Source: a virus
Taxonomy: Duplodnaviria > Heunggongvirae > Uroviricota > Caudoviricetes
Reading direction: 5' to 3' (one strand)
Virus record (IMG/VR): IMGVR_UViG_3300049825_000338
Coordinates: 20,600 to 84,599 of that record
DNA length: 64,000 bases
The number at the start of each line of letters is the position of its first letter. Within the stretch, counting starts at the first letter, position 1. The translations under genes were made by a program, and so were the position numbers. A model generated the notes under the pieces. The model ran no database searches. It was not told where the DNA came from and saw nothing but the letters and a program-made list of their open reading frames with translations. Shown piece after piece: positions 3,005-55,206 of this stretch.

Positions 3005-3604
3005 CTAGAGTAGCATGTCAGCAACTACGTAGGCGAGATCGGCCATTTCGACGTCGTTATGAACAACATTGTCAACGTCAATATTGGCAACTTCCAGTTC
3101 GCTGGCATGCCCATTAAGTGGCCCTGTCCCTGGTCGATCCACTCTCCAGAGAATACCACCAGCATAGCGAACGGCCTCACCCTCGTTTGGGAACCGCAAG
3201 TCAGCAATCACGGCCTTGGGAACCTTTATGGCCGCTTCGATTGTTCGCGTGACCCAGATTTTGTCTCCCAAAAGGTTTCTGCCTACATCAGTGCCCATAC
3301 GCTGCCATAGCTCGCGACATTCCTTGCCATAACCGACATGTCCTTTGGCAACCTCAACAGCCTCATCCATAGAATCTGCCATGAGCGAATTGAGAAAGTC
3401 CTGGTAGCGAACTCCAGAAGCTAGCAGGGGGTTAAGTACCCAAACACACTCTTTAACTAGGCCAGCGAATTTGAATTTAGTGAACCCGTGATCGTTAACA
3501 AGAATAGCCGCTACGGTATCCTTACCAGACCTACCGTAGCCCGTCAGACCAACGAGCACCGGCGCTCCATCTCGTGCTCGATGAGCAAGCGAATTGTTGA
3601 CCAT
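3005..3604 (-). CDS. deoxynucleoside monophosphate kinase (T4 gp1-like)
   Basis: GLTGYGRSGKDT P-loop; blockwise similarity to T4 gp1 (AGLVKE, LWQRMGTD, RVDRPG). Confidence 0.75.
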   Translation of the reverse strand: MVNNSLAHRARDGAPVLVGLTGYGRSGKDTVAAILVNDHGFTKFKFAGLVKECVWVLNPLLASGVRYQDFLNSLMADSMDEAVEVAKGHVGYGKECRELWQRMGTDVGRNLLGDKIWVTRTIEAAIKVPKAVIADLRFPNEGEAVRYAGGILWRVDRPGTGPLNGHASELEVANIDVDNVVHNDVEMADLAYVVADMLL

Positions 3605-4131
3605 GACGCAACTCGCTGCACATTAGGATGATCCGCAGCATCTCGATTCCACGTCTGATCAAACAAAATCACATTCGGGCACCCCGTGTCAGCAAGACTT
3701 ACGCAATTCTCTTTTTTGTCGTCAATAGCGAAGTCGAAACGGTGACCACCATCTTTGTGTTGCCCGAGGTCTGCTAGTTCTAGTTCATAGTCAAATTTGA
3801 AGTGAGCCGCCAGCCACGCCTCCGTGGCGGTCCGCACTTCCGGACGTCTTGCGGTGAGGAAGGTAACTTCAGCGCCTTTCTCGGCAAGAATGGTGAGATT
3901 CCTCACCGCACCAGATATGGGTTTACCAGCACTAAAGAATCGCGGGGTTCTGAGCCATTCCTCATACAATGTATAGCTGACATCCCAATCTTTCATGAAC
4001 GACCACTGCGTGGGCCAAGGCTTGTTGTATTCCTTGGTCAGCAACCCGATGAAGTCGTATACAACTCCATCACAATCAACTGCTAGCTTCACGTTTTTCC
4101 TCTCGTTTTTCACATTCGATACCGATACCAA
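3544..4131 (-). CDS. HAD-family 5'(3')-deoxyribonucleotidase-like phosphatase
   Basis: LAVDCDGVVYDF (DxDG HAD motif I), later motifs LTAR, FAIDDK. Confidence 0.6.
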   Translation of the reverse strand: MVSVSNVKNERKNVKLAVDCDGVVYDFIGLLTKEYNKPWPTQWSFMKDWDVSYTLYEEWLRTPRFFSAGKPISGAVRNLTILAEKGAEVTFLTARRPEVRTATEAWLAAHFKFDYELELADLGQHKDGGHRFDFAIDDKKENCVSLADTGCPNVILFDQTWNRDAADHPNVQRVASWSTIRLLIEHEMERRCSLV

Positions 4132-8565: not shown

Positions 8566-9594
8566 TCAGAACGTGATGTACCGTTTGCGCTTTGGTTGCC
8601 CAAACCCAATCGCAAGAGCACCCAGACCAGCCAGCATTGATCCAATTCCGATCATCAACATCATTGAGCTGCCGTCTGATCCTGTCTTAGGAAGTACTGA
8701 TCCGGAGTGAGGGTTTGGTGTGGGAGCTGTAGGAGGAGGCACACCGACTGTCGACACTGGAGGCAGCCCTACATCAACTGTTGTACTTGGTGCGGTGGCT
8801 ACCGTTGTAGTTGGTGCTGGAGCTGTTGATGTTGGGGCCGGGAGCGTGGTTGACGGGGCTGGTGCGGTTGTCGTGGGGGCAGGTGGCTGCGTTGTTGTCG
8901 GAACAGTCGATGTGGGCGGAGTGTCACAGTTTGTGCGTACAACATAATCCATCTCTTGACCGTAGTACATCACGGTGACGGTGTGATCCCCGGAGTTACG
9001 TTCGAAAGTAAAGACTCGCGTCTCGGTGGTGTTGGCAAGAACAACGATGGTGTCATACGTGCTGTCCTTACCATCAATCTCGATCATGAACACGGCGGCT
9101 TCGCCATTTTTTCCATGAGGCACTTCTAGAACGTTTGTAAGCTTTACTACGGCCTTACCGCAAGAAACTTCAACAGAATAGTTGGGATTAGCTGGAACCA
9201 GACTGTCGTCAATTGTTGTAGTTGACTCGTAGTCGTCGTCGTCATCATCAACCGTGGTGTCGGTGCCGTCGTCAGTTGACGGAGGAGTTGACTCGTGACC
9301 GTCGTCGTTACCGTCTGGACTTGTGGTTTCTGACTCTTCATCATCGTTCTCGTCGTTCGATGTTGACGGATAGGTCGGAGGAATGCTGACCGTTACAGGC
9401 GGATAGGTGGCCTCGTCGTCATCGTTCTTGCAGTTATCTTCACCATCGTTCTTGCTAGCGTAGAGACTTTCGCACTTGTCTGACGACTTCGGTGATTCGT
9501 CATTGCCTCTAAAGTTAGCAACCATGGATGACCCGAAGGACAGGGCTGTTGTAGCGACTACTGAGCTAATTACACGTTTGATCATGATGACCAC
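8566..9594 (-). CDS. LPXTG cell-wall-anchored surface protein (sortase substrate)
   Basis: N-terminal signal peptide, acidic D/E-rich region, Thr/Pro-rich region, C-terminal LPKTG followed by a hydrophobic segment and KRKR tail. Confidence 0.7.
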   Translation of the reverse strand: MVIMIKRVISSVVATTALSFGSSMVANFRGNDESPKSSDKCESLYASKNDGEDNCKNDDDEATYPPVTVSIPPTYPSTSNDENDDEESETTSPDGNDDGHESTPPSTDDGTDTTVDDDDDDYESTTTIDDSLVPANPNYSVEVSCGKAVVKLTNVLEVPHGKNGEAAVFMIEIDGKDSTYDTIVVLANTTETRVFTFERNSGDHTVTVMYYGQEMDYVVRTNCDTPPTSTVPTTTQPPAPTTTAPAPSTTLPAPTSTAPAPTTTVATAPSTTVDVGLPPVSTVGVPPPTAPTPNPHSGSVLPKTGSDGSSMMLMIGIGSMLAGLGALAIGFGQPKRKRYITF

Positions 9595-9643: not shown

Positions 9644-10906
9644 TCAGGAAGACAACTCCATGTCCGGAACGTCGGCCTCAGCAGCCAGGCCCTCACCCAC
9701 GCGGAACGTCAAACCCTTGTGCTTCAAGGCATAGGTACGACCCTCTGGCGTCTCAACACGGGCAACCACGCCCTCGATAGGATGCGACTCGTCTAGAGGG
9801 TCCGGACCATCAAAATACACCTCAGCAATCTTAACTGTATAATGAGGATCAGCAGCTTCGTGAATGTGCCGAGCAATCTCTCTGACGTGAGGAACGCCGA
9901 GCTGCGCAGCACGATGCTTGACCTGCGGCCATGAAAGCTCTACAGAAACAGGAGCACCGAAAGCGTCTTCGGTTGTCTGTGTGACTCGGTAGATGTACAC
10001 ACCAATCGAGCCATCAATCTGGCCGTACTTGTAGGTAACACCATCGCCCCACTTCTTAAAGTCCTTCGTATCCTTGAAGTTGTGTCGACCCATGATCGGG
10101 CTGTCCTGAGCCGTGTAACCGACAATCTCGTAGTAGACGATCTCGCCCTTGTGAAGCTTGCCATCGAACAACGAAGCTGCTCGCTTGCGGAATGATTCGT
10201 CCAGGTAGTAGCCAGGGCCGTCAAACTGGTCAAGCACCGTATTACGCGTACCGGTCAAGTACATCCATTCAAACGACTCCGCTGACTTCGTCGGTCGTCG
10301 AAAAAGCTTCTCGATGAGTGTGCGCTTCTCTGTGCTCTCAACCTTGTCGAGCACGTGGCCTGTTCGGCCGCTGGTGCCGTGCATCTTGTGCGTGAAGTAC
10401 ACCATCGAGCCGTCAGGAATCTGATCGAAGTAGTAACCTAGCTGTTCGGTGTCAAAATGCTTCGCAAAGAACGGATTTGACCGTCGAAGCTTGTGATCAT
10501 TCGGACCACCAGCTGCCTTAGTCTTCGGTACATGCTTGAGGCACACTTCGTGACCATTCAATTCCGTGAATATGTCACCGGACTTCAGTGCTGACAGATC
10601 GTAGCCTGTGTAAGCGAGCGATGACAATGGTGCAATGTAGCCGTCAGATGACTCGCCACGAAACTTCTGTGGGCGAACGCGCAACGAGTCGGGGAAGTAC
10701 CCGCCGTCCTTGGACCGTAGCCTGTTCTCGGTTGCATACTCATCGGAGACTGCTAACTCCGAAGAGAAAAAGACGACAAGCTCACCGTCTGTCGTGTCCA
10801 GCCCGACAACAACCTGAAAGCCGCCCACCTGAGCGAGCTTCAGTCGGTCTGCATTTGGGTGCGGACGAATCGACGCCTGTGTAATGAATGCTCCGTGCGT
10901 TGTCAT
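9644..10906 (-). CDS. RNA ligase with N-terminal tRNA-binding (OB-fold) domain
   Basis: HPNADRLKLAQV (tRNA-binding domain signature), KMHGTSGR resembling ligase motif I (KxDG variant); adjacent phosphoesterase genes. Confidence 0.55.
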   Translation of the reverse strand: MTTHGAFITQASIRPHPNADRLKLAQVGGFQVVVGLDTTDGELVVFFSSELAVSDEYATENRLRSKDGGYFPDSLRVRPQKFRGESSDGYIAPLSSLAYTGYDLSALKSGDIFTELNGHEVCLKHVPKTKAAGGPNDHKLRRSNPFFAKHFDTEQLGYYFDQIPDGSMVYFTHKMHGTSGRTGHVLDKVESTEKRTLIEKLFRRPTKSAESFEWMYLTGTRNTVLDQFDGPGYYLDESFRKRAASLFDGKLHKGEIVYYEIVGYTAQDSPIMGRHNFKDTKDFKKWGDGVTYKYGQIDGSIGVYIYRVTQTTEDAFGAPVSVELSWPQVKHRAAQLGVPHVREIARHIHEAADPHYTVKIAEVYFDGPDPLDESHPIEGVVARVETPEGRTYALKHKGLTFRVGEGLAAEADVPDMELSS

Positions 10907-11565
10907 GATGCTCTCTTTCGTGCAATAGAAATTTCTTTGATCAATTCTTGCAAGCTTAACGGCCCTTCGATCCAGCTGTCAACTCCAACGTGAAATGAAT
11001 TCATATCGTCATGGGCGACTTGGCCGTGAGTGTGCCCGTGTACCAAAACGGTTCCGTCTCTGAAGTCCTCGCGCTTTGGGTACCACTTCGCGATGTCGTA
11101 ACCTCGGTCAGCGTCGTCGTGATCTGGAGTGCCAAACCATGGAAAGTGACTGAAAATGGTGCCCTCCAATTCAGGAGCGATAGTGACACCGGCCATAATT
11201 GTAGGGTGGATGGTGAACGTACCTTCGTACAACTCACGAGCACCTTTAGCTCGTTCGGGATTCTTGTGTTGTGCTGCTGGGTGAACGTTGTCGTGGTTGC
11301 CTGGAATCAAGTGCTTGATTCCGTTCAAGTTCTCAGCCATCCATGGAATCGACACAGACCGAGTACCCATAGCGGCATCGCCCACGATCCAGATGTGGTC
11401 GTCCTTACCGACAACTCTATTCCAGGCTGTTTGCAGCACGGCGTTATGTGTCTCGACAGTGCCATCAAACATAGCTCCCTGACGAAATTTCTCAGCCAGA
11501 TTGGTGTGAAAGAAGTGCGTATCACTCCAGAAAAACGTGTTCATAGGGTTACACTCTACCCGCAA
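10903..11565 (-). CDS. calcineurin-like metallophosphoesterase
   Basis: DTHF, GDAAMG, GNHD, GHTHG motifs. Confidence 0.7.
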   Translation of the reverse strand: MRVECNPMNTFFWSDTHFFHTNLAEKFRQGAMFDGTVETHNAVLQTAWNRVVGKDDHIWIVGDAAMGTRSVSIPWMAENLNGIKHLIPGNHDNVHPAAQHKNPERAKGARELYEGTFTIHPTIMAGVTIAPELEGTIFSHFPWFGTPDHDDADRGYDIAKWYPKREDFRDGTVLVHGHTHGQVAHDDMNSFHVGVDSWIEGPLSLQELIKEISIARKRAS

Positions 11566-11577
11566 AACCTAGATATG

Positions 11578-12357
11578 TCAAGTGCTGTACAGAAACTGAT
11601 TCAACGTAACAATCGTGTCGAGAACCGTGTCAAGAACTCTGGCAGAACTGTGAAGCGTAACGCCCTGGCTTGACTCAGCCAAGCCGGTGCAGTGAAAGCC
11701 GTCTACATTGTAATCTTCGTTCATATGCCAGTGACCATGGACAAGTCGTTCAGGTCTGATTTCGTTTAGGCACTGGCGAATGAGGTTCTGCCCTGCCCTG
11801 CTCCCCTTACGGTGCTGCTCGGGGATTCGACTCTGAAAGTCGTCATGACCGTACTTATGAAGTACCAGGCTTACCGGTGCTTCGTGAGTCAGTAGAATGT
11901 GCGCTCGCTTGCCACGAACAAACTCAAGCGAGCTAGGCGAAACAACCTCTTCATCAAAGTAGGAGTGCCCAAGAGAGCGCATGTCACGATCGATGGAATA
12001 GGCACCACCAATGGCGATTATGTCCGTCTCATTCCAGCGCCATGCGCCGTGACGAGGCACAAACTGTGTGCCTTCGACGTCCACAAACGGACCTTCTTCC
12101 AGAAGATAGCCCGAAAGAGACTTCCAATCTTCGTGATTACCCGGCAACCAGAAAAGTGCTACACCGGTTTTGGACTGCTCTTGCCTGGCTACGGAGAGAA
12201 AACGCTGACCAGCTTCGTTACGTGGCCAATATCCGAAATCGCCCATCTGAAAGATGGCATCAATGCCGCTGTCTTGCGCAACCTTGAATGCCGACAGCAG
12301 AGCATAGGTGTCACAGTGAGTGTCACCTAGAAGGAGTACGAAGCGAGGGTCGGTCAT
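11578..12357 (-). CDS. calcineurin-like metallophosphoesterase
   Basis: LLGDTHCD, MGDFGYWP, GNHEDW, LLTHEAP motifs. Confidence 0.7.
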   Translation of the reverse strand: MTDPRFVLLLGDTHCDTYALLSAFKVAQDSGIDAIFQMGDFGYWPRNEAGQRFLSVARQEQSKTGVALFWLPGNHEDWKSLSGYLLEEGPFVDVEGTQFVPRHGAWRWNETDIIAIGGAYSIDRDMRSLGHSYFDEEVVSPSSLEFVRGKRAHILLTHEAPVSLVLHKYGHDDFQSRIPEQHRKGSRAGQNLIRQCLNEIRPERLVHGHWHMNEDYNVDGFHCTGLAESSQGVTLHSSARVLDTVLDTIVTLNQFLYST

Positions 12358-12371
12358 CAGTCTAGTCTACT

Positions 12372-13016
12372 TTAAACGCTTTGGTTTGTCAACTCACTGA
12401 TGCGAACGGATAGTAGCCAGTCGTTAATGGTGCTGTAGTCAGGAAGTTCGTTTAGGCGGGATGCATAACTAGTCACCTGCTCAAAGAGACTCCGAACCGT
12501 CGAGATATCGGCATTGCGACAAAAGTCAATCTGTGCGTCTGTCAGTGCCGGGGTGATTGTTCCCCAGTAAAGAAGTGACTGTAGCTGTAGTGACAGACGA
12601 GCAGCATGGCGCAACAGCTTGGGATCGTCCTTACCGACGCGTGCGTAGCGGATCAGTTGATTGTTGATGTACCCCTTGTATGCTCTCACAGCTTCATTAC
12701 TCAAAAAACAGTGACGAAGCTCAACTAATTCAACTCCGGTCTTTGTCAGCGTCTCGTGAGACGGCAGCCACAGTACTTCATTGACCGTTGGATTACCTTT
12801 CAAAGCTAGAGCGCAAAATCGGCCTAACTCGTGATACGTTGTGTCAAACGGCTCGTGACTTTGAATACTCACGTTCTTGTCATACTCAATACCAAGAACT
12901 TTTCGCGTCGGCGCAAGCTGAACTTCTATATAATCATAATCGGAGTCGGGTGTCTCTAATCCGTAGGCACGTGAACCCACCAAAGCCTTAAGAATCGTGA
13001 TCATGGTGAAGCGCAA
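12372..13016 (-). CDS. nucleotidyltransferase-fold (Pol beta-like) protein
   Basis: LVGSRAYGLETPDSDYDY matches G[SG]x(9-13)DxD NTase motif. Confidence 0.5.
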   Translation of the reverse strand: MRFTMITILKALVGSRAYGLETPDSDYDYIEVQLAPTRKVLGIEYDKNVSIQSHEPFDTTYHELGRFCALALKGNPTVNEVLWLPSHETLTKTGVELVELRHCFLSNEAVRAYKGYINNQLIRYARVGKDDPKLLRHAARLSLQLQSLLYWGTITPALTDAQIDFCRNADISTVRSLFEQVTSYASRLNELPDYSTINDWLLSVRISELTNQSV

Positions 13017-13455: not shown

Positions 13456-13757
13456 TTGTTTGCCAACTCTCTGATTGAAGGGTTTGCCCCAGATATTCCT
13501 AGGTGCTTATGAACGGCTTTTCTAAGCCTCCTGGTATAAAGTGTATGTCTGTCAAAGGGATGAGGATTATCCAGATAGGTCATGTATCCACAACGAACTT
13601 TTAAGTCACCAAGATCAAATTGCCAGAACCTGTTATCGTTGTCGCCATAAAGTCGTTTAAAGTTTGTTGCGCGACCGGCCTTAACTCCGCTAACTACAAC
13701 GGAATACCACCAAAGTCCTCGTGCTTTCGATTTCTCAATTCGGATACCTTCAGCCAC
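13452..13757 (-). CDS. hypothetical protein (ATGA-coupled to GIY-YIG gene)
   Basis: ORF; start/stop overlap. Confidence 0.4.
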   Translation of the reverse strand: MAEGIRIEKSKARGLWWYSVVVSGVKAGRATNFKRLYGDNDNRFWQFDLGDLKVRCGYMTYLDNPHPFDRHTLYTRRLRKAVHKHLGISGANPSIRELANK

Positions 13758-15213
13758 GGAGACGTTCTCTGATCTTGTCTAGCGTGTTGTCTTCGGCATA
13801 GTCCATCGAAATCAAACTGTCTACGAACGCTGGTCGAAGAAGATCGCGTGTAGACGACTCCTGCTCTTCTGGAGATAGGCCATCATTCAGAACGAGTTTG
13901 CCGTTCTCACGAGTCACCGTCAAGAATCCAGTTGCAGACTTCTTCAGGCCGTCATCAGTCACTGGGTCTTTGGCAAGAAAGTGAATCTTTCCGTTGATCT
14001 CGGCTGCTGTAGCCTTCATGGCCCACCCGAACGTATCGCGAGTTACGTACTGGTATGTGTAGCTGCCAATACCGAGCACAACTTCTGGAGCGTAGCCAGC
14101 GGACTGAAGTCGAGCAAGAATTTCTTGCGCTCGATCAAACGTAATGGCGTCTCCATAAATCACGCCAACCTTAGGATTGAGCACTCTGTAACCTTGAGTG
14201 TTCGTTGTGCTTCCAAATACTTTGTCAAGAAGACGGACAACGCCTTTCGATTCATCAGAATCAGCAGGTGCGTCAGGATCACCGCAAATGATCTTTACCG
14301 GGTCGCCACTGTCAGGACGGATCACGAGCTTGCCGTCACGAGCCTCAATTTCTTCCTTAAGGTCAGGAAGAATGTTGTTGATCACGTTCCACAAGTCCCA
14401 AGTGTCAGAAACAACCGAGACAATCCCAGAAGGGTACAGGTGCAAAAGTCGATTGAATGTCTCTCGCTCGTCCATTTTTGATCCAGCGCACATCACTGAG
14501 TGCTCGGTAGCAGCCACTGAGCCACCGATGAGTCCTTGACCGTCGTAGTAGTGCTCAAGCAGCTTGATTGCTGGGATGGTGTCCGTGCCCGTAAAGCTGA
14601 GAAGGTGGCCAGCGCCTGAGATAGCGGCGCTTTCTGGACTGGACATGCCGCGGAAACTGAAGTCATGACCTTGCCACTGCACGAACTCTGGTGCTACACC
14701 GGTAGCGGCTGCGCTACGGTCAAACAACTTTCGGTATCTGTCCGCAGTCGTAGCTGACGTCGATGGCAGCCACAGGACGCTGGACAGCAGCGTCTCGATA
14801 TAGTTGGTCAGCCAGAAGAACTCTGGGTCAGTATTTTCGACCGTAAGAACGGGAACCCTCATCGGCACTCTCGTGCCCTCGTCCAAAGCCATGATGGCAA
14901 TCGGAAGACGTTGCAACTTATGCAGTGCTTCGATGTGGTCGACGCCGATATTGTTGGGTCCGAGGTAGCTATCCAAGAACTCGCGATACTCCGCAACCGC
15001 TACGTCACAGGGGGTATCGAACCATTCATTGAACTCGTCAACAAGATACTTCTGCATGAAATAGCGAAGACCAAAGAACACAATCTCGTCAACACCCTCA
15101 ATGCGTGATCCTCGCGGCGTCAGGTTAGAGTAGACAAACGTCGTTCCTTCTGGATACTGACGACGGTGGTCTACCTTGTAGCCGTCAGTTAGCAAGATTG
15201 CTGGTGTGTTCAC
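13750..15213 (-). CDS. nadV: nicotinamide phosphoribosyltransferase (NAMPT)
   Basis: LLTDGYKVDH, VENTDPEFFWLTNYIETLL, GHDFSFRG, VVSDTWDLWN match NAMPT family blocks. Confidence 0.85.
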   Translation of the reverse strand: MNTPAILLTDGYKVDHRRQYPEGTTFVYSNLTPRGSRIEGVDEIVFFGLRYFMQKYLVDEFNEWFDTPCDVAVAEYREFLDSYLGPNNIGVDHIEALHKLQRLPIAIMALDEGTRVPMRVPVLTVENTDPEFFWLTNYIETLLSSVLWLPSTSATTADRYRKLFDRSAAATGVAPEFVQWQGHDFSFRGMSSPESAAISGAGHLLSFTGTDTIPAIKLLEHYYDGQGLIGGSVAATEHSVMCAGSKMDERETFNRLLHLYPSGIVSVVSDTWDLWNVINNILPDLKEEIEARDGKLVIRPDSGDPVKIICGDPDAPADSDESKGVVRLLDKVFGSTTNTQGYRVLNPKVGVIYGDAITFDRAQEILARLQSAGYAPEVVLGIGSYTYQYVTRDTFGWAMKATAAEINGKIHFLAKDPVTDDGLKKSATGFLTVTRENGKLVLNDGLSPEEQESSTRDLLRPAFVDSLISMDYAEDNTLDKIRERLRG

Positions 15214-16129
15214 GGTGGAACCTTTCGATTAGATTAGCAATTGAATACGTGCGAGTTACGTTCACGTTTGGATGAGCATACGAGTCTGTCGTAAGAATAT
15301 GTGTGTACCGTTTCAGTAGTTCTGATGTGCCTTTCGAAAAGATACCATGAGATACCCACAGCGACAATGGCACTCTACCGCCAACTATGTCAGCAAGACC
15401 ATGAAATGTTGCACCACCATCACAGATATCGTCAACAACAAGCCCGTTAGTGACGCCTTCCGGAATAGCGAGAGACTCGTACCCAGTGATACTGCCGGTG
15501 TCGAAGTTTCGTTTCTTTATTCCGTAGCTCACTTTCTTAATCCCTAGGAATTCTGCAAACGCTTCGGCGCGACCTACTGCCCCATGATCTGGAGTAATGA
15601 CCCAATCAAACTTTGGCATCCATACTTCAGCCTTTGCCAGAACTTCGTGAGCGCTGTAGACAACAACGTTTTTGTTCCAGTTATGAAGCCAATTCAGTGA
15701 ATGAGGATCAAACACGCCGACATAATCGCAAGCGTCCATGAAGTAATCCATGATGATGGAAGCCGTATCGGGCGTTCCATTTTGTTGACGATCCTGACGT
15801 CCTCCGTAGATATACGGAATGAATGCAGAGACGTAGGCACCAGCACCAACCAAAGCATCTACCAGCAGCATCGACCGAAACATACATGATGTCGAACTAT
15901 GGTCAACAACCAACGTCATTTCAAGTCCAGCAAACTTCGGTGGATCAGTCAACTGCACCTGCTGTGCTCCATCAGGAAAAACAAACTCGGCGTACCACGA
16001 CTGATCTGTCTGATACAGGATCATAGCACTGAACGATTTAGGTAAAGTAGACCAGCGCACAGCAACACTCCAAGGATCAGCACTACCGCTCCCATGGCCA
16101 ACGCCCGCTGCTAGCGAGTCCGACAACAC
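15185..16129 (-). CDS. prs: ribose-phosphate pyrophosphokinase (PRPP synthetase); likely start at MILYQT (~16024)
   Basis: IPYIYGGRQDRQ (Prs hallmark) and VVDDICDGGATF PRPP-binding loop. Confidence 0.8.
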   Translation of the reverse strand: MLSDSLAAGVGHGSGSADPWSVAVRWSTLPKSFSAMILYQTDQSWYAEFVFPDGAQQVQLTDPPKFAGLEMTLVVDHSSTSCMFRSMLLVDALVGAGAYVSAFIPYIYGGRQDRQQNGTPDTASIIMDYFMDACDYVGVFDPHSLNWLHNWNKNVVVYSAHEVLAKAEVWMPKFDWVITPDHGAVGRAEAFAEFLGIKKVSYGIKKRNFDTGSITGYESLAIPEGVTNGLVVDDICDGGATFHGLADIVGGRVPLSLWVSHGIFSKGTSELLKRYTHILTTDSYAHPNVNVTRTYSIANLIERFHREHTSNLAN

Positions 16130-31128: not shown

Positions 31129-31514
31129 TGAAACTCCTCTAGGTAGTATGTCATGTCTTGACCGTCCTTAAACACAACAACGTTCATGTTCGCACCCATC
31201 TGTCTCACTATGTGAGATGAGACCTTCCGAAGAGCATCAGAATTCAGCCACGAAGTTGAATACCAGATCGTAGCATCATCCGGCGTAGGTTCGGTGCCGT
31301 CTACAAAGAACGTCACCGAACCATCTGAACCAATAGCTACTGCTCTGTTTGTGTACTGGTTTGGCTGTTCCTCAAGCTTCTGAAGATCAAGAACGGTGTC
31401 GGTGTCGTGGCTCCAGATCAGTCGTTGCGTGCCGTAACCTCGCATAGTCGCTACTACAGCTGAATCAATCAGATCGGTAGGTGACTGAAGCCACCTCGGC
31501 TTTTTGAACCTCAT
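31125..31514 (-). CDS. hypothetical protein
   Basis: ORF only. Confidence 0.4.
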   Translation of the reverse strand: MRFKKPRWLQSPTDLIDSAVVATMRGYGTQRLIWSHDTDTVLDLQKLEEQPNQYTNRAVAIGSDGSVTFFVDGTEPTPDDATIWYSTSWLNSDALRKVSSHIVRQMGANMNVVVFKDGQDMTYYLEEFQ

Positions 31515-32464
31515 TTCGGAACTTGGCTCACAAGAACCTGAGAGCCAGCCGGAATGTAGACTGTATTAGCCTTCTCAAGTGCTTCAATCTGCTTCAGCGT
31601 CAGCAACTCCGGTGTAAGGCTTGCTGTGATGATGGCGTTAGAATCTGCTTCGCCCTGAGCGGCGATGACCTTAGCCTTGGCATCCGTCTCAGCCACCTTA
31701 CGACGCGTCTCGGCCTCCGTTACCTGGGTCTTCTGTGTGATCTCCGCCTGTAAAGCCTGTTCACGAGCCTTCGCACGGTCGCTGATCGCTGAAGCGAGCA
31801 CAGGGTCTGGCGCAACATTACGCACGTTCACCGTATCAAGACGAAGACCGTACTTCAGCAGTCGCTTAGCAAGATCGGCTTCGATTTCAGTGCGAATAGC
31901 TTCACGCTGCGAGGTGTAGCCTTCCTCAGCGGTGAACTTGGCAAACACAACACGAACGGCCTCACGAGCTTCCGGACGAACCAGGCGTTCACGAATTCCG
32001 GTCTCACTGCCAACAAGACGGAACAGAGCCGAAGCGGACTTCTCTTCAATGAAATAACGAATCGTGATGTCGACGCGCATCTGATAGCCGTCCGACCCAC
32101 GAACCTCTATAGCGTCCTTTTTGGCTCTGTCGCCTTCGTCCAGAACATCCAGCATCGAAGATTCCTGAACGCGAGTTGAAAACGTGTTGATCGACGTCCA
32201 CGGTGCAGTCAGATGGAACCCAGCGCCCTTAGCCTGACCGATCGACCCGAACGTAGTAGGGATACCGACCGTGTTCGACGGAACGATACGAACCGTCGAA
32301 AATCCAAGTAGTAGGACCGCCAAGATGGCTAGAGGAATAGCTGCAAGCGTGGCAATCTTTTTCTTCTCTGTTCCTCCATACGTCTTGCCTGTCAGGACTC
32401 GTGAAACGCCAAAGAATGAAAGCGCTGCGATAAGAAAGATGACTCCTAAAACAAATCTAATCAT
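31511..32464 (-). CDS. SPFH/Band-7 (stomatin/prohibitin-like) membrane protein
   Basis: N-terminal TM helices, VRIVPSNTVGIPTTFG...PW start of SPFH fold, long coiled-coil C-terminus. Confidence 0.65.
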   Translation of the reverse strand: MIRFVLGVIFLIAALSFFGVSRVLTGKTYGGTEKKKIATLAAIPLAILAVLLLGFSTVRIVPSNTVGIPTTFGSIGQAKGAGFHLTAPWTSINTFSTRVQESSMLDVLDEGDRAKKDAIEVRGSDGYQMRVDITIRYFIEEKSASALFRLVGSETGIRERLVRPEAREAVRVVFAKFTAEEGYTSQREAIRTEIEADLAKRLLKYGLRLDTVNVRNVAPDPVLASAISDRAKAREQALQAEITQKTQVTEAETRRKVAETDAKAKVIAAQGEADSNAIITASLTPELLTLKQIEALEKANTVYIPAGSQVLVSQVPK

Positions 32465-38059: not shown

Positions 38060-38857
38060 CTACGGCCAGAGTTTAGCCCAAGTCTTTGGGCCAACCACGC
38101 CATCGATCGTCAAACCACCGATAGCGGTCTGCCACGCCTTGACTGCTATCTCTACAGTCTGGTCAAGGTACCCCTCAGTGCCAATTTCGGCACCGTCACG
38201 GATCAACCCGGCGCGCAGCCAGCGAACAGCGTCATACTCTCCAGGAGAACCGGACCCTGATCCAAGGCGAAGCGTGTACGTCTTAGCTGCCGCAATCCCA
38301 GCCGCCAAATCTGGAAGAGGCTCTGGAACTGGTTCGGGGGTAGGAGGATTCTCAAAGTCAAGAACTGCCTGAGGAAGATCATCTCCAGCAACATAGCGCC
38401 AGTGCCAGCTTTCAGACTGAGCCTCGGCCGAAAAACCAAACGTAGCCGCAACCGCAATAAGCCACGTCACAAACCCTAGATAATCGGGCATGTTCGTAGC
38501 AAAGTCAATAGCTAGACCCAGACCGTGATTGCTTGTGCCCGGAACAGCTGCCATGGCGGTACGCGGCTTCTGCCAATACGTGCGTCCGTTCCAAACTTTC
38601 TTTGGACGACCTGGCAACGGAACTCGCGTGTATCGAGACTGAAACAATGCAACTTGCTGGTCATATGTCCGATATGTTCCTGTAGCAGACACTTGAAACC
38701 CGCTAGTGGCAATCAGCGCCTCAAGCGCACGAGCCGCTAGGTGATGCATCTTGAACGGATGAATGCTGAGATAACTCATCAACCCGTCAGAAAGACGGCC
38801 GTTAGGCGCTCCAACTAGGTCAGAAGGAGGGGTAAGAGGAAGAACCGGTAAAGCCAT
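38060..38857 (-). CDS. endolysin: M15 (VanY-like) peptidase with C-terminal peptidoglycan-binding domain
   Basis: YRTYDQQ, VPGTSNHGLGLAIDF (LAS metallopeptidase), C-terminal DGVVGPKTWAKL PG_binding_1 motif. Confidence 0.75.
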   Translation of the reverse strand: MALPVLPLTPPSDLVGAPNGRLSDGLMSYLSIHPFKMHHLAARALEALIATSGFQVSATGTYRTYDQQVALFQSRYTRVPLPGRPKKVWNGRTYWQKPRTAMAAVPGTSNHGLGLAIDFATNMPDYLGFVTWLIAVAATFGFSAEAQSESWHWRYVAGDDLPQAVLDFENPPTPEPVPEPLPDLAAGIAAAKTYTLRLGSGSGSPGEYDAVRWLRAGLIRDGAEIGTEGYLDQTVEIAVKAWQTAIGGLTIDGVVGPKTWAKLWP

Positions 38858-41069: not shown

Positions 41070-41271
41070 GGTGACCACTCTACAGACTTCAGCGGTAAAG
41101 TGCAACATGCAAATCGACAGATACGCCGAATGCGACGGATGCGGATGTCGCATATACAGCAGCGACGCTGGCGCTATTCTCCAACTAATCAAAGACGCTG
41201 GCTGGTCGTGGAGCAGATGTCCGGATTGCTACGAACTCGCTTGCGGTAGAATACAGCATGAGAAACCCTAG
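41068..41271 (+). CDS. Cys-rich small protein
   Basis: CDGCGC...CPDC...C. Confidence 0.35.
   Translation: MVTTLQTSAVKCNMQIDRYAECDGCGCRIYSSDAGAILQLIKDAGWSWSRCPDCYELACGRIQHEKP
41077..41105 (-). promoter_or_regulatory. sigma-70-type leaderless promoter
   Basis: minus: TTGCAC (41100-41105), 17 nt, TAGAGT (41077-41082), 7 nt, ATG 41069. Confidence 0.45.
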
Positions 41272-41491
41272 TAACTTCGAAGTCGGTTTTCTGGCTCTAA
41301 CGAGTTTCATGTTTGTCGCTGCCATTGTTGGCGGTGTCTCATGGGCCATAGGCGTTCGTCCGTGGGCGGCACTGGTTGGAGTACTAATTGGGTGTGCACT
41401 TCTTGGGCTTTGCTGGCCTCTTGGGTGGCTGCTCAAGCGATGTGGTAGCAAGATCGGTACCCGAACCACTACTCAGACGGGGCCAAAATGA
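41258..41491 (+). CDS. small membrane protein
   Basis: two hydrophobic helices. Confidence 0.35.
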   Translation: MRNPSNFEVGFLALTSFMFVAAIVGGVSWAIGVRPWAALVGVLIGCALLGLCWPLGWLLKRCGSKIGTRTTTQTGPK

Positions 41492-41694
41492 TTGGTAACA
41501 CAGAGTCTGGCATGTTCATACAGTGCACATGTGGCAAACGATCCGAAGCTTCGGACGGCGTGAAGCTACTTGAGGTAGCTAAATCTGAACGATGGGCGCT
41601 CATCAGGCACTCAGACAGCTACGAACTAACCACCGAATGTCTGGATTGCTGGACAGATGGACTAATTGAGAGCGTGTCCGAAAATGCGGACTAA
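41488..41694 (+). CDS. Cys-rich small protein
   Basis: CTCG...CLDC. Confidence 0.35.
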   Translation: MIGNTESGMFIQCTCGKRSEASDGVKLLEVAKSERWALIRHSDSYELTTECLDCWTDGLIESVSENAD

Positions 41695-41929
41695 GTGGGG
41701 ATGGCAGGCACTACTGCCGTGGGGAGATCACCACTTCAAAGAAGGTGTCTACTCGGCAGCAAGAGCCGTGCGATTCCGTAGTCCTAAGCACGGATGGTTC
41801 GCAACCGGCATAAACGTGCCAGAAGCTGGACGCATACACTGGGGGCCGTTTGGCAAAGTGCGGGCAGTGATTGACTGTGTTCGGCTTGTGCGGAAAGCTA
41901 ACCGTGATCGCCCGTCTTGGGTTAATTGA
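41666..41929 (+). CDS. hypothetical protein
   Basis: ORF only. Confidence 0.3.
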   Translation: MRACPKMRTKWGWQALLPWGDHHFKEGVYSAARAVRFRSPKHGWFATGINVPEAGRIHWGPFGKVRAVIDCVRLVRKANRDRPSWVN

Positions 41930-41930
41930 C

Positions 41931-42422
41931 TCAGAGTACGGGTTGAACAGACTCCAGAAAACCGACGTAAACGATCGATCGGCCACGAGTCCACGAGCAC
42001 TGCAACACGATGCGCCGAGCCGCTGGATCAAGGCCATAGATAAGTTCAGCGGGCGGGTCTTGAGACGTCACGGTTCTGGTGGCAATACGATACGTGAACA
42101 CCTGGTCATAGGAATTGATGTTCACCGTTTGCCCAGCACGGAGACGTGGGAGCTTACGGAACGGAGCACCGTGACTCGAACGATGACCGGCCAGCCAGAC
42201 AGTACCGACCTCGCCAGGAGCCACAGCCGGTGACCAGCCGTCAAACAAGGTGACGCTACCAGCATCAATTGATTCCTGGTCACCTACGTAGATGTCAGCG
42301 CCGAATCGAAGCGACGGAATCTCCAAGTACCAGTCGGTGGTATTTGAAGAAGCGGAAGCCGGAATGCTTGTAGCTATCGGTAACAGGATTACAGCCAGAA
42401 AGACACACAAAGCTTTCATCAC
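41931..42422 (-). CDS. sortase-family transpeptidase
   Basis: signal peptide; VWLAGHRSS (His), RIVLQCSW (Cys), TRGRSIVYVG (Arg) in SrtA-like order. Confidence 0.6.
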   Translation of the reverse strand: MMKALCVFLAVILLPIATSIPASASSNTTDWYLEIPSLRFGADIYVGDQESIDAGSVTLFDGWSPAVAPGEVGTVWLAGHRSSHGAPFRKLPRLRAGQTVNINSYDQVFTYRIATRTVTSQDPPAELIYGLDPAARRIVLQCSWTRGRSIVYVGFLESVQPVL

Positions 42423-42573
42423 TCAGTTTCTCCGTATTCAACCTTGCCGCCGAACACGGCGAGGGCGTAGTTGACCTGTTCCCAGATAGACGCAGAATGC
42501 GGGGTGTTGATCAACTCGCGTAGCTCGTCTTCAGTCAGGAAGATTGGAAACGTGACGTCTTCTTCATTGAGGT

Positions 42574-42783
42574 TCATAGCATGTCTTCTTTCAGTAGGGT
42601 GTCTAACAGGATAACAACTTGGCGTGCACTAGCCGTCTTGACGGTTGCTGAGCATTCTTGACAGCCAATAAAGAACACGACACTGACGTCGTGCAGATCA
42701 GAAAGACCGCCAGCAGGAATAGAGGTGCCTAGGGTGTAATCCCAAGACAGATCGTCAGAGCCGCAATCAGGGCATGTGATCAT
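42574..42783 (-). CDS. Zn-ribbon small protein
   Basis: CPDC ... CQEC. Confidence 0.4.
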   Translation of the reverse strand: MITCPDCGSDDLSWDYTLGTSIPAGGLSDLHDVSVVFFIGCQECSATVKTASARQVVILLDTLLKEDML

Positions 42784-42937
42784 GACAGACCTAACGCCTT
42801 GCGCAGTCGCTCAAGCTGATCGCCATCCATTGACTTGGCAAGCTCGATCAGCATCTCACCCGTCAACGTCACCTCCGGACATGGAAAGATGTGTGGTGAT
42901 ACGTCAAGGTCTACATGCGCATAGGACTTGGGCATGC

Positions 42938-43114
42938 TCATGACATACCCGACCGGACAAAGAAGCGGTCACGGTCGAAGTGAGAGTCAGCGCACAAAAG
43001 AGCGGACGCCACGTACTCAACCGCCCGGTCAAACGATGGTGCGTGTGAATCCTCTCCATCCTCACGGGCGAACCAGAAACCGTCAGCAATGGCGTCGTAG
43101 GTGTCTTGTGTCAT
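42938..43114 (-). CDS. hypothetical 58-aa protein (track ORF trimmed to ATG 43114)
   Basis: leaderless promoter 43122-43150; the track start is a TTG that is the first half of the -35 hexamer. Confidence 0.4.
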   Translation of the reverse strand: MTQDTYDAIADGFWFAREDGEDSHAPSFDRAVEYVASALLCADSHFDRDRFFVRSGMS

Positions 43115-43121
43115 GAACAAC

Positions 43122-43150
43122 ATCTTACCAGACTCAGCCAGCCGTGTCAA
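43122..43150 (-). promoter_or_regulatory. sigma-70-type leaderless promoter
   Basis: minus: TTGACA (43145-43150), 17 nt, TAAGAT (43122-43127), 7 nt, ATG; AGAAATTGTATAAA element upstream. Confidence 0.55.
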
Positions 43151-43331: not shown

Positions 43332-43360
43332 AGTATACCACCACCTACTGAAGTTGTCAA
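43332..43360 (-). promoter_or_regulatory. sigma-70-type leaderless promoter
   Basis: as above; AGAAATTGTACAAA element upstream. Confidence 0.55.
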
Positions 43361-46620: not shown

Positions 46621-46802
46621 TGATAAATGCCCTTAGCAGCAAACTCGTCAAGACGTCGGTCTACCGCAAAGTCTCCGAGAATCAGACGTGCGTCCTCAAG
46701 CGAGGCAACAGTTATCGACTCGCCACTAGTCCACAAACGACGCGCTTCCTCTGCCGATAGCGCTGAGGATTCGTCAATCGTCATTGTAGGTAGTAAGTTC
46801 AC
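46617..46802 (-). CDS. hypothetical small protein
   Basis: ATGA-coupled ORF. Confidence 0.35.
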   Translation of the reverse strand: MNLLPTMTIDESSALSAEEARRLWTSGESITVASLEDARLILGDFAVDRRLDEFAAKGIYQ

Positions 46803-48658
46803 TCTGATTCCTTTACGAGCACTGCCTTCAACATCTTACCAGTGATCTTCGCTGCAACAGCACGGTGGTGTCCAGAGAGAATTACTCTGCGTCCATCTGC
46901 CTTCTCATAAACGACCGGGTATGTGTTACCTGCCTGATGAGCGTCAGCAAACGTCTTACCAGTACGTTCGTATTGACCTGTTGTGTAGTGCTGCACTCCC
47001 GACTTAGTGACCCACGGCTGCGTGGCGTGTAGGTTGTCGGTCGGAATGTCAACTAGCCGAGGAGTCTTGACGGCTGCTTCGACCTTCGCACGATCGAACA
47101 GAGGTTCTGTTTTCTTACGTCCAATCGACGGAAATGGTACGGGTACCTTGTCGTGGTGAGCAAATAGCTTCTCAACTCCGGGGTGATCCTTAGCAGGAGA
47201 CTTAATTACTCGGTGAATGGCCTGAGTCATTGTCTCGGCGTTATCTGCGGGCTTCGTGAACCTTGTCTTGACTACTCGGCTAGCCTCTGGAAAGTAGTTA
47301 CGCCCAGACGTGAACTTGCCTTCGGCATCGTGATTTTTGTTGTAGAAGTCATCTGCATCAAGAATCACAAATGAATCAATTGTTTCTTGAATGAGTGATG
47401 CAGTCACCTGAATACCAGCAAAGACAAGAGAATCGGGCATCAGTGCAATTTTCTGAACAGGAAAACGTCCAGTCTCATGAACTACAGCGTTCTGCGCTTC
47501 TGTCTCAGTTGCCAGCGCTCTGATAGCGCCACGACTCTTGAACATCTCGGAGTGAGAAACGTAAGCCGCACGTTCTCCATGACGATCAAACCCTCGGCCG
47601 GTGGCAGCGTGACCGAACACATCATGAACGGCGCGAAACATGTCATTTTCCTGATCGGTAAAGAACGTGTGACTTCCCGTCACTGCCGTCTTCATCACCT
47701 TGATCGTGCCCGCTTCAACGTCGGCAGTCATCATCTTGGCTGTTCGGTATGGGTCGTATGAAACAAACTCGACCTTGATTCCCTTAGACGTCATAAAATC
47801 AAACTGCTGTTTCACTTCACCAGCAAGTGCTCGATACGATGGGTGCGCCGATGGATCATCAACAGGCATAGCTTCATACGCCTTAGCCATCTTTGAGCGT
47901 AGCTCGGCGGGAGCCATTATTTCATCCCAAGCACCTTCAGATCGTTCGGTGCTCTGCGTGTACGCATCCCGAATTTGACGCGCTCGTGCTGATCCAGTCA
48001 CATCTTCGATTACTTCTGGATTGGCTACGTTTACGTCAGAGGCAGTGAACCGACCCTTTGCGTCATGATTCTTATTGAAGAATTCATCAGAACCTTGATC
48101 GAGCGACCAACGCCCATTTGACGTGTGGTAGATGTGGTACTGAGCAAATAGATTGTCATCAGCCACCACAAACTCATTTGTCTGAACTACAGATAGGGTC
48201 ACTTTCTCGGCACCCTGACGACTCGTTAGCGTATTCACGATACCTTGAAACATAGGCTTCTTCATGTAGTCACCTTCACGTCGATACGATTTGTCGCTGA
48301 TCTGGATTAACCGATCAAACCTCAGATACGACTCACGACCTGTCTTATCCCACTTGCCTTCACCGATGCTCACTCGGCCAGGTCCAGACTTCGACGTTAG
48401 TTGAAGTGCAACTAGATTCTTGCCGTCAGCGGTACGGCCGATAATCAGCACAGGACGATCCTTGCTTTGCGAAGCGTCTTCTTGAAACGGAACGCGTGCC
48501 CACACCACTTCGCCTGGATCAGCGTGACCGTCTGGATATCGTGGGCGGTAGGCAATCTTGATATTAGAGAACGACACATCAGGAAGAGCTGTCGATCCTG
48601 ATGTAGTAGTGAACCGACCTACGTTGTCGTGAGCCTTGTTGTAGAATTCGTCATCCAT
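46799..48658 (-). CDS. multidomain polyvalent-type protein: MazF/PemK-like, unknown and ParB-like nuclease domains separated by three FYNKNHDxxG[RK]F motifs
   Basis: DEFYNKAHDNVGRF, DEFFNKNHDAKGRF, DDFYNKNHDAEGKF. PGEVVWARVPF...RPVLIIG (PemK-like). YPVVYEKADGRRVILSGHHRAVAAKITG (ParB GxxR/HHR box). Confidence 0.6.
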   Translation of the reverse strand: MDDEFYNKAHDNVGRFTTTSGSTALPDVSFSNIKIAYRPRYPDGHADPGEVVWARVPFQEDASQSKDRPVLIIGRTADGKNLVALQLTSKSGPGRVSIGEGKWDKTGRESYLRFDRLIQISDKSYRREGDYMKKPMFQGIVNTLTSRQGAEKVTLSVVQTNEFVVADDNLFAQYHIYHTSNGRWSLDQGSDEFFNKNHDAKGRFTASDVNVANPEVIEDVTGSARARQIRDAYTQSTERSEGAWDEIMAPAELRSKMAKAYEAMPVDDPSAHPSYRALAGEVKQQFDFMTSKGIKVEFVSYDPYRTAKMMTADVEAGTIKVMKTAVTGSHTFFTDQENDMFRAVHDVFGHAATGRGFDRHGERAAYVSHSEMFKSRGAIRALATETEAQNAVVHETGRFPVQKIALMPDSLVFAGIQVTASLIQETIDSFVILDADDFYNKNHDAEGKFTSGRNYFPEASRVVKTRFTKPADNAETMTQAIHRVIKSPAKDHPGVEKLFAHHDKVPVPFPSIGRKKTEPLFDRAKVEAAVKTPRLVDIPTDNLHATQPWVTKSGVQHYTTGQYERTGKTFADAHQAGNTYPVVYEKADGRRVILSGHHRAVAAKITGKMLKAVLVKESE

Positions 48659-50889: not shown

Positions 50890-51246
50890 TCATTCTTCCA
50901 AGTCTACCCACTGGCTTCGATCGTTCAACACCTGAGTTCTGATGTTTTTCGGATTCATGGCTTTCTCAACCAGCGACTCAACAGACGGCCGACCCGCAGC
51001 CAGTGCTACAGCCGTACGAAACCACGCTTTCCATTCAGGAGTCTCGCGTAGACGCTGGAACGCAGCAGTCTTGTTTCGGTGTTGCTCACGGCTGTCTGTC
51101 GCTTCGCCAACAGCACCAGAAGCTCGGTGAACAAGCCGAACACCGGTATGCGATTTGTTGCGATGCTGTCCACCGGCACCCGAACCACGAATATGCGTCT
51201 CGTCAAAGTCTTTCGCTGTGATCGTCAGAATCAGTTCTCGGCTCAT
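50890..51246 (-). CDS. GGQ-motif peptidyl-tRNA hydrolase domain protein (ArfB/release-factor-like)
   Basis: RGSGAGGQHRNKSHTGVRLVH matches the ArfB GGQ block; DSREQHRNKTAAFQRL follows. Confidence 0.75.
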   Translation of the reverse strand: MSRELILTITAKDFDETHIRGSGAGGQHRNKSHTGVRLVHRASGAVGEATDSREQHRNKTAAFQRLRETPEWKAWFRTAVALAAGRPSVESLVEKAMNPKNIRTQVLNDRSQWVDLEE

Positions 51247-54966: not shown

Positions 54967-55206
54967 ATGTTCACATTCGCCATACAATCAGTTAGTGGCC
55001 ACATTTCTTACTTTGACTCATCTCGGGTAGTTTCTTTTGTAGAAATAAAGGACGAACCCGACAAGGTGATAGTAGTTATGGATAACGGAACATCGGAACC
55101 GGTGTTTGTGGGCATTGAAGCTTCTCCAGCAGTCTTTTACAGAACTCTTCAAATGAGGTCTAGATTTCTCAACGATGTGCCTATTCTCAAGGAAGTGACA
55201 CTATGA
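54967..55206 (+). CDS. hypothetical protein
   Basis: ORF only. Confidence 0.4.
   Translation: MFTFAIQSVSGHISYFDSSRVVSFVEIKDEPDKVIVVMDNGTSEPVFVGIEASPAVFYRTLQMRSRFLNDVPILKEVTL

Follow-up and report, generated by a model that had tools for sequence, protein, structure and literature searches.

Phage gene products that are exported and fixed at the surface of the host cell have been described in several forms. Llp of phage T5 is a phage lipoprotein for superinfection exclusion. The Ltp lipoprotein of S. thermophilus TP-J34 is a phage-encoded, surface-exposed superinfection exclusion protein (PMC3952083), and SasX is an LPXTG protein on a staphylococcal prophage, a phage-borne cargo that the host sortase anchors (PMC7047976). 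The DNA analyzed here is a stretch of 64,000 nucleotides, hereafter called the window, from a phage of the class Caudoviricetes (positions 20,600 to 84,599 of IMG/VR record IMGVR_UViG_3300049825_000338). It holds one gene for a predicted wall-anchored surface protein with an LPKTG sorting motif (8566-9594) and another for a predicted exported protein with a sortase fold (41931-42419), both on the minus strand. Like Ltp, Llp and SasX, the LPKTG protein is a phage gene product with a predicted place on the outside of the host cell. It is predicted, from sequence alone, to be wall-anchored, whereas Ltp and Llp have a lipid anchor; SasX belongs to a temperate element and is a colonization factor, unlike the present lytic-type phage. 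None of the three has an accompanying phage sortase homologue. To our knowledge, sortases have been treated as strictly cellular enzymes, and the occurrence of a sortase-fold gene and a sorting-signal protein in the same lytic phage genome is rare and undescribed.

The initial annotation of this DNA had read the two genes as a phage bringing its own sorting enzyme together with its own substrate. The reading favored here, with a probability of roughly one half, is that these are two separate envelope accessory genes, that a host sortase anchors the LPKTG protein, and that the sortase-fold protein is non-canonical and differs from the enzymes of Cys-dependent LPXTG sorting. The results, all in silico, cover gene structures, the fold, homology, equivalences of residues and the occurrence of the proteins in phages and bacteria.

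Fold, class and catalytic columns of the sortase-like protein

The features of the sortase-like gene are as follows.

41931-42419, minus strand: predicted exported sortase-fold protein of 162 amino acids, from the ATG at 42419 (open reading frame (ORF) 41931-42422; GGAG about 10 nt upstream)
42348-42419, minus strand: signal-peptide-like N-terminus, MKALCVFLAVILLPIATSIPASA/S, ending ASA and then SS; read from the sequence, with a low predicted local distance difference test (pLDDT) score over residues 1-25
42183-42185, minus strand: codon of His79, in LAGHRSSHG; near-invariant His column, matching His120 of SrtA
41994-42002, minus strand: Gln140-Cys141-Ser142; Ser142 in the column of SrtA Cys184, Cys141 in that of Thr183
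41976-41981, minus strand: Arg147-Ser148; Ser148 in the family Arg column, Arg147 one residue earlier

No linker separates the signal-like segment from the catalytic domain. A structure was predicted with AlphaFold2 using 89 homologues, with a pLDDT of 92.1 and a predicted template modeling score of 0.81. The top 50 Foldseek matches to this model were all sortases, with E values down to 1.2e-11 and template modeling (TM) scores of 0.63-0.77; SrtA from L. rhamnosus (7f87), Streptomyces SrtE (5go5, 5go6 and 5cuw) and T. fusca SrtE matched at a TM score of about 0.7. By sequence, the best solved relative was SrtE1 (5cuw, E = 9e-9). The Pfam model PF04203 (Sortase) gave 46.6 bits against a cutoff of 26.6, spanning only positions 1-88 of the 125 in the profile, and TIGR01076 (sortase_fam) gave 28.6, under its cutoff of 39.35. 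The modeled eight-stranded beta-barrel, the Pfam score and the catalytic His place the protein in the sortase superfamily (peptidase family C60 fold).

Its relatives make up a compact family with a domain of about 135 amino acids, a very short beta7/beta8 hairpin and the nucleophile consensus RILLQTCxGxxxRLLVHG. Assignment to one of the curated classes A-F or GN, a check that the initial annotation had proposed, was ruled out, every model scoring under its cutoff; the class E model (NF033747 of NCBIfam) scored best, at 47.8 bits against 160. Seven compact-family relatives were tested in the same way: six matched class E at 27-59 bits, far under the cutoff, and P0216 gave no match, with class E the best-scoring model in five of the seven. 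Class E sortases (SrtE1 and SrtE2 of S. coelicolor; 5go5 and 5go6 of S. avermitilis) resemble the phage protein in their beta-barrel, their LAGHR..HG.PF His motif and their actinobacterial origin. The phage protein differs from them in its much smaller domain of about 135 amino acids, its three-residue beta7/beta8 hairpin, the lack of a linker after the signal, and the presence of Ser in both the catalytic Cys and the catalytic Arg columns. The sorting signals differ as well: class E sortases recognize LAXTG (PMC5148588), whereas the putative phage substrate and the substrates adjoining compact relatives carry LPXTG.

For residue equivalences, a profile hidden Markov model (HMM) was built only from the 103 relatives with a canonical Cys, and SrtA of S. 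aureus and the phage protein were both aligned to it. The phage protein aligned without a gap over residues 32-155 (124 residues, 121.7 bits), reading RRIVLQCSWTRGRSIV against erilLqTCegaaqrllv of the HMM. LTLITC of SrtA fell on the family LLQTC and its AGH on the His column; the SrtA alignment stops before Arg197, whose equivalence was taken from the family pattern. The alignment thus does extend over the Cys and Arg region, as the initial annotation had expected of a sortase, but the canonical His/Cys/Arg triad that it had described is not there: His79 is in its column, with Ser142 in the Cys column and Ser148 in the Arg column. Among 141 full-length relatives the nucleophile column holds Cys in 103, Ser in 36, Ala in one and Ile in one. 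One column earlier, 126 of the 141 have Thr and eight have Cys; Arg is found in its column in 116 and His in its column in 140. In the family alignment, the column of Arg147 is variable.

Secondary structure assigned with DSSP on the AlphaFold2 model gave strands at 135-143 and 147-160 joined by a three-residue turn. In this model the hairpin would make Ser142 and Ser148 partners on the face that bears Cys and Arg in canonical enzymes, and Cys141 would lie on the face of Trp143 and Ile149, probably in the core. The catalytic Cys of the TLxTC motif (Cys184 of SrtA) is needed for transpeptidation (PMC5148588); with Ser in place of this essential residue, the phage protein may not be a working sortase. 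An automatic "sortase" label should therefore not be taken at face value, and, since two defining catalytic residues are out of column, the protein was filed neither as a bona fide sortase nor as a member of class E. What stands of the sortase gene in the initial annotation is its presence on the strand of the LPKTG gene, 32 kb away, with a signal-like N-terminus by eye; the triad falls away.

Several points weigh against so non-canonical a site. The side-chain orientations of Cys141 and Arg147 are indirect, being derived from strand alternation and hairpin pairing. Cys141 is the sole Cys of the mature domain, and it lies six residues from Arg147, which is the canonical spacing, so that a local slip in register could restore a working Cys/Arg pair. 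In the neighbor-joining tree, a Cys at the position before the nucleophile also turns up at three or more separate points, always on a Ser background, a recurrence that could mean a relocated, functional thiol. These features would suit an active phage sortase that, after a one-residue slip in register, uses Cys141, His79 and Arg147, and that anchors the LPKTG protein free of the level and specificity of the host sortase. The clear sortase fold is consistent with such a dedicated pair, as is the conservation of QCSWTRGR in the four closest relatives. It would nevertheless have to be squared with a gap-free alignment that sets Ser in both catalytic columns and with a hairpin that sets Cys141 on the face of Trp143 and Ile149, probably in the core, and we consider it unlikely; evidence from gene positions and from relatives of both proteins also bears on it and is given below.

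The LPKTG protein and its relatives in cultured phages

The LPKTG protein is composed of the following parts, the coordinates of which were checked by translation.

8566-9594, minus strand: ORF of the wall-anchored (LPKTG) surface protein, 342 amino acids when read from the GTG at 9594, although translation more likely begins at the ATG at 9585 (Met4)
9514-9594, minus strand: signal-peptide-like N-terminus, MIKRVISSVVATTALSFGSSMVA, read from the sequence by eye
9199-9513, minus strand: strongly acidic low-complexity region, residues 28-132, with Cys41 and Cys55; 32% Asp/Glu, isoelectric point 4.05
8926-9198, minus strand: seven-strand beta-sandwich bounded by Cys145 and Cys223, residues 133-223, with an SGDH motif (AlphaFold2 and homology)
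8698-8925, minus strand: Thr/Pro-rich stalk, residues 224-299, 57% Thr+Pro
8680-8694, minus strand: LPKTG sorting motif, residues 301-305 (translation and TIGR01167)
8566-8679, minus strand: hydrophobic membrane segment, KRKR-containing tail and stop (translation and sorting-signal scan)

This layout, typical of a sortase substrate, agrees with the initial annotation, which had placed the ORF, acidic stretch, Thr/Pro stalk, LPKTG, membrane segment and KRKR where they were found; the signal-like N-terminus is again a reading by eye. That putative signal peptide has a basic KR, a hydrophobic core of 13 residues and small residues before the presumed cut. The mature protein has a computed net charge of about -35. 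LPKTG is followed by 37 residues with a hydrophobic core that terminate in KRKRYITF. The LPXTG_anchor model TIGR01167 scored 24.6 bits against a cutoff of 15.9, and the Pfam model PF00746 (Gram_pos_anchor) scored 16.2, under its cutoff of 20. A six-frame scan of ORFs of at least 60 amino acids in the window found no second convincing tripartite sorting signal; a lenient pattern was otherwise passed only by an unconvincing LSVSG at 51995-52210. The LPKTG signal is therefore not a chance motif. No second sortase substrate was found in the window and about 21 kb of flanking genome. In the public gene call, from the Joint Genome Institute (JGI), the protein starts at Met24, has 319 amino acids and excludes the signal-like segment; as that start would drop the signal peptide, the longer ORF makes more biological sense, and export would need its upstream GTG or ATG. 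Judged by its translated sequence, the protein fits the definition of an LPXTG wall-anchored protein. The AlphaFold2 model of its beta-sandwich module has a pLDDT of 83.5 and seven strands, and Foldseek returned only generic FN3/Ig-like matches (E >= 1.5e-3). With such neighbors only, the module would suit a spacer and carries no functional clue.

Relatives of this protein were found in cultured phages. The module (residues 133-212) is 35-42% identical, by tblastn, to proteins of the Microbacterium phages Zooman, Big4, A3Wally and Pumpernickel, and 41% identical to Zooman gp245 by BLASTP. Zooman gp245 ends in LAATG, Pumpernickel gp243 in LATTG and A3Wally gp278 in LAQTG, each followed by a membrane segment and a basic tail. 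All three of these translated proteins have a Pro-rich stalk, and those of Zooman and A3Wally have a signal peptide. Their current annotation is merely "membrane protein" or "hypothetical protein"; the loci are L001:1783-4368 (Zooman gp245), L023:2607-4433 (Pumpernickel gp243) and L024:2283-4487 (A3Wally gp278). A metagenomic protein, P0005, carries a 38% identical module immediately before a Thr/Pro stalk and LPRTG.

The Microbacterium phages are, like the present one, large, lytic-type and associated with actinobacterial hosts, and their wall proteins share with the LPKTG protein a homologous Cys-bounded module, a Pro-rich stalk and a tripartite sorting signal. They differ in that their proteins have 609-862 amino acids, several extra domains, an LAxTG motif of the class E type and no acidic head. 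Wall-anchored proteins thus appear, from these sequence comparisons, to be a recurring feature of large lytic actinophages. The phages themselves differ from the present one in that a sortase-like gene was not detected in them by tblastn with sortase-family queries, a search made without a per-ORF profile search. Insofar as LAxTG relatives occur in phages without a detected sortase gene, a host sortase is probably enough for anchoring, and probably also for anchoring of the LPKTG protein. This weakens the idea that a dedicated phage enzyme is required to anchor the phage substrate, and it likewise speaks against the dedicated pair set out above. A host sortase is the simplest assumption here.

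Bacterial and viral relatives of the sortase-like protein

An exhaustive search yielded 682 relatives of the sortase-like protein. The matches in the genome collection were all (8/8) from Ilumatobacteraceae or other Acidimicrobiia, and the metagenome and genome scans yielded distant relatives only, at 28-52% identity. The closest homologues, P0002 (66% identical) and P0003 (71%), are bacterial. P0003 sits on a bacterial fragment of 65% GC, with a histidine kinase gene upstream, a small membrane protein gene next to it and, further on, genes for a CDF transporter, an inositol monophosphatase and WXG100 proteins. The small membrane protein downstream of P0003 (L002) has no counterpart in the phage, and no neighborhood is conserved between the two. 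The G+C content at third codon positions (GC3) of the phage gene, 0.55, matches that of other phage genes and lies below the 0.75 of the bacterial homologue, which argues that the gene is resident and adapted and not part of a chimera. Capture from the host lineage, that is, a bacterial origin, is the favored reading of these comparisons. That the gene is an artifact, either host DNA joined to the phage contig or a chance ORF, might be suggested by the bacterial nature of its closest homologues, but is effectively refuted: a second assembly (105,914 bp, circularly permuted) has an identical gene in the corresponding place, the GC3 is phage-like and not that of 65% GC bacterial DNA, the start codon overlaps the stop of the phage gene before it, and the fold prediction is highly confident.

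Uncharacterized "LLQTC" sortases from metagenome-assembled genomes of Acidimicrobiia (Ilumatobacteraceae and Acidimicrobiales; for example, P0018, P0021 and P0195) are like the phage protein in size, in their short hairpin and in the invariant Gln before the nucleophile. They keep Thr-Cys and Arg, whereas the phage protein has Cys-Ser and Arg-Ser in those columns, and they have an N-terminal membrane anchor followed by a Pro/Thr/Ala linker, whereas the phage protein has only a short, cleavable-looking signal. Canonical LLQTC relatives were found beside LPSTG, LPRTG or LPATG proteins (L004, L005, L006, L013, L014 and L018). This arrangement is in favor of a dedicated pair, as is a phage substrate of the LPxTG and not the class E LAxTG type. 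No adjoining LPXTG substrate was seen at seven loci of serine-bearing Gln-Thr-Ser (QTS) relatives (L003, L010, L019, L020 and L025-L027), and the bacterial homologue P0003, too, is without an LPXTG neighbor, which tells against it. The pairing of enzyme and substrate in the initial annotation is not supported by position or context: the two genes are 32 kb apart, and LPXTG substrates lie beside canonical relatives but not beside the serine-clade relatives at those loci.

The serine-bearing clade accounts for 36 of the 141 full-length relatives, and its Gln-Thr-Ser, which replaces Gln-Thr-Cys, is strictly conserved. In the literature searched, a sortase-fold clade of this kind was not described. 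P0009, the sister of the phage subclade, has a PG_binding_1 domain fused to the sortase-like domain, a peptidoglycan-binding fusion that suggests the clade still works at the wall. Three members of the clade (L010, L019 and L020) are N-terminal domains of proteins of about 600 amino acids.

Two further explanations turn on what the serine does. The phage protein may be a pseudo-sortase that binds LPXTG signals or lipid II without transpeptidation and so either disturbs the display of host wall proteins or pili (for example, a phage receptor), leading to superinfection exclusion, or holds the LPKTG protein at the membrane. Replacement of both the Cys and the Arg columns with retention of fold and His would fit such a trap, and the Arg is missing altogether in many members of the clade. 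Yet the substitution in the clade is nearly always Ser (36, against one Ala and one Ile) and the neighboring Gln and Thr/Cys are kept, a constancy that argues for a chemical role over a dead site, and this explanation is quite unlikely. The same constancy, with a near-invariant His, would instead suit a serine-dependent wall enzyme, in which Ser142 and His79 form a nucleophile pair with hydrolase or transpeptidase activity toward the stem peptides of peptidoglycan or other exported proteins, unrelated to the LPKTG protein. The peptidoglycan-binding domain of the sister protein P0009 and the clade members that form part of larger proteins are in keeping with this activity. It is distinctly unlikely in our judgment, as the literature searched described no Ser nucleophile in an enzyme of the sortase fold, the conserved Arg, thought to stabilize the transition state, is absent from its column in the phage protein, and no acidic third residue was identified.

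The initial annotation had called the pairing of a sortase and its substrate rarely annotated in phages, and the searches bear this out. PHROGs held no family matching the sortase-like protein, and tblastn of this protein and of a class E sortase against 50,697 deposited phage genomes gave no match. With SrtA as the query, the phage collection returned only unannotated, mostly short records, which were taken as host DNA without inspection (including records of 94,579 and 160,453 bp). One such case is srtA of the host S. aureus at 99% identity in "Staphylococcus phage SA 1298 Kay" (4.5 kb), which looks like host DNA under a phage name. A phrase such as "phage-encoded sortase" was not found in the literature searched, and a broader keyword search gave nothing relevant.

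In IMG/VR, neither the phage protein nor its clade alignment, used as query, brought up relatives; only a divergent group with the motif QTSLPGG was found there. In this group the His is kept, Ser is at the nucleophile column and there is no Arg. The group lies on contigs of 68-69% GC that have many small ORFs along with genes for ParB-N, HNH, a Tet/JBP dioxygenase, a helicase loader and a replication initiator. The gene was also found in four IMG/VR contigs, one of them 60.7 kb (uncultivated viral genomes 3300027743_000429, 3300027675_000189, 3300009168_000205 and 3300027743_000005; L035-L038). Ser-bearing sortase-fold loci without the conserved Arg were also seen at L028:6001-6462, L030:8001-8489 and L033:3864-4265. 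At L030 the next gene encodes a secreted protein of 162 amino acids. The L033 variant has a lipoprotein-type signal (LALVALTSC) and lies on a phage-like contig of 44% GC, with helicase and HNH genes on one side and genes for a dCMP deaminase, a PD-(D/E)XK exonuclease and a Sak4-like protein on the other. No LPXTG protein was found in the readable parts of these Ser-clade viral contigs. Phage-borne sortase-fold proteins do occur, and all those found here lack the canonical cysteine. A further point for the pseudo-sortase trap is that relatives lacking the catalytic Cys recur on unrelated viral contigs in the company of early or replication genes, and that the readable sequence of these contigs has no LPXTG gene.

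Genome setting, expression and proposed roles

The two genes lie in a genome of about 106 kb. A Logan contig of 105,914 bp (SRR35533331_34691; L021, L022 and L039) is a circular permutation of the 106,011 bp JGI contig, with window position equal to Logan position + 7177, wrapping at the end. As the two assemblies are circularly permuted, the genome is about 106 kb and probably complete; the phage genome is therefore either circularly permuted or terminally redundant. The window has a GC content of about 51%, and no tRNA genes were found in it. Its genes include rIIA, rIIB, NAMPT, RNA ligase, PolA, primase and a ClpP-like protease, as well as phosphoesterases, a nucleotidyltransferase, a dNMP kinase, Prim-Pol, a DUF927 primase/helicase and a wall hydrolase with VanY and PG_binding_1 domains. 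Genes for a class II ribonucleotide reductase, a WhiB-like protein and the large terminase lie just beyond it. No integrase was seen in the readable parts of the phage genome. This gene content upholds the lytic-type phage of the initial annotation. Among deposited phages, the closest are Zooman, Big4, A3Wally and Pumpernickel, Microbacterium phages of about 190 kb, but with a PolA only 32% identical, and megablast of window positions 38-46 kb against the phage collection gave no nucleotide match. The replicon is a new, large, lytic-type actinophage.

The surroundings of the sortase-like gene that bear on its expression are listed below.

42419-43150, minus strand: four small genes that overlap at their stops and starts, directly before the sortase-like gene (42938-43150, 42780-42941, 42574-42783 and 42419-42577)
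43332-43360, minus strand: sigma-70-like promoter match, TTGACA/17 nt/TATACT plus TG, 11/12; a consensus match upstream of the small-gene cluster
43122-43150, minus strand: second sigma-70-like promoter match, 10/12; a consensus match

The sortase-like gene is the last of this overlapping run of five, its start overlapping the stop of the preceding gene, and the same small-gene cluster was called on the Logan contig. The promoter setting is compatible with early transcription by the host polymerase, as judged from the DNA; these are consensus matches only, and their number is not above that in shuffled sequence, which detracts from the argument. The LPKTG gene directly follows the RNA ligase gene after a gap of 49 bp with no promoter match. 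The LPKTG and sortase-like genes, 32 kb apart and in different clusters, are not co-transcribed and form no unit, another point against a dedicated pair.

On the favored reading of two separate accessory genes, the LPKTG protein would be exported through Sec, cleaved between Thr and Gly of its motif, by default by the housekeeping sortase of the host, and then linked to peptidoglycan. The infected cell would thereby carry on its surface a Thr/Pro stalk of about 75 residues that bears one beta-sandwich and an acidic head (about -35). The probable payoff, by analogy with Ltp and Llp, would be masking of wall receptors, leading to superinfection exclusion and sparing progeny from adsorption to wall debris. 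The roles put forward in the initial annotation, namely superinfection exclusion, adhesion and decoy display, are conjectural. The sortase-fold protein would probably be expressed early, as the last gene of the small-gene cluster, and most likely has a wall-directed function other than Cys-dependent LPXTG sorting, perhaps through its Ser, through a relocated Cys, or through binding of a substrate without turnover. Export, anchoring by a host sortase, early expression and biological role are what we infer from the computed results.

Other genes of the window were noted in passing. Next to the sortase-like gene, a plus-strand island of three overlapping ORFs (41258-41929; 77, 68 and 87 amino acids, the first with two membrane segments) lies among minus-strand genes and ends one base from the sortase-like stop; only its third ORF was called on the Logan contig. 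Three kilobases from the sortase-like gene is a VanY-type peptidase with PG_binding_1, a likely endolysin (38060-38857, minus strand). Two more products appear to be envelope-directed: an SLT_3 lysozyme-like protein adjoining PolA (61801-62262, plus strand) and a membrane-anchored SPFH/Band 7 protein (31511-32464, minus strand). Around the LPKTG gene, an RNA-repair-like cluster (3544-4131 and 9644-13016) comprises the RNA ligase, two phosphoesterases and a nucleotidyltransferase, with a polynucleotide-kinase/NT5C-like gene further downstream. A salvage pair for nicotinamide adenine dinucleotide at 13750-16129 consists of nicotinamide phosphoribosyltransferase (phrog_448, E = 1.8e-183) overlapping a ribose-phosphate pyrophosphokinase-like (PRPP-synthetase-like) gene. 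A minus-strand gene at 50890-51246 encodes a protein of 118 amino acids with a single RF-1 domain (Pfam, 62.3 bits), like the ArfB-type peptidyl-tRNA hydrolases and unusual for a phage. Another, at 46799-48658 (minus strand), encodes 619 amino acids with an N-terminal PemK/MazF-like toxin domain (Pfam, 28.6 against a cutoff of 23.1) and a domain of unknown function (phrog_3170). The ClpP-like protease gene (55203-56545, plus strand) is placed in the replication region and not in a head-assembly module, and the next gene, for a weakly VWA-like protein, begins within its end.

A broader proposal can be put forward tentatively, although we hold it to be unlikely in its full form. Ser-bearing exported sortase-fold proteins may form a class of accessory proteins that recurs among phages and has so far gone undescribed. 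They would reprogram the wall-anchored surface of infected Gram-positive cells, either by a non-canonical nucleophile (Ser142 or Cys141) or by trapping of sorting signals, and here, with the LPKTG protein, would form a portable kit for surface remodeling. Whatever the role of each protein, the two pose a testable question: do lytic phages rewrite the covalently anchored surface proteome of Gram-positive hosts, for exclusion, progeny protection or adhesion? The cultured Microbacterium phages offer a laboratory-tractable case of phage-encoded wall-anchored proteins. The Ser clade, if active, would represent a second type of nucleophile in the sortase fold; if inactive, it would represent conserved pseudoenzymes that are useful to phages.

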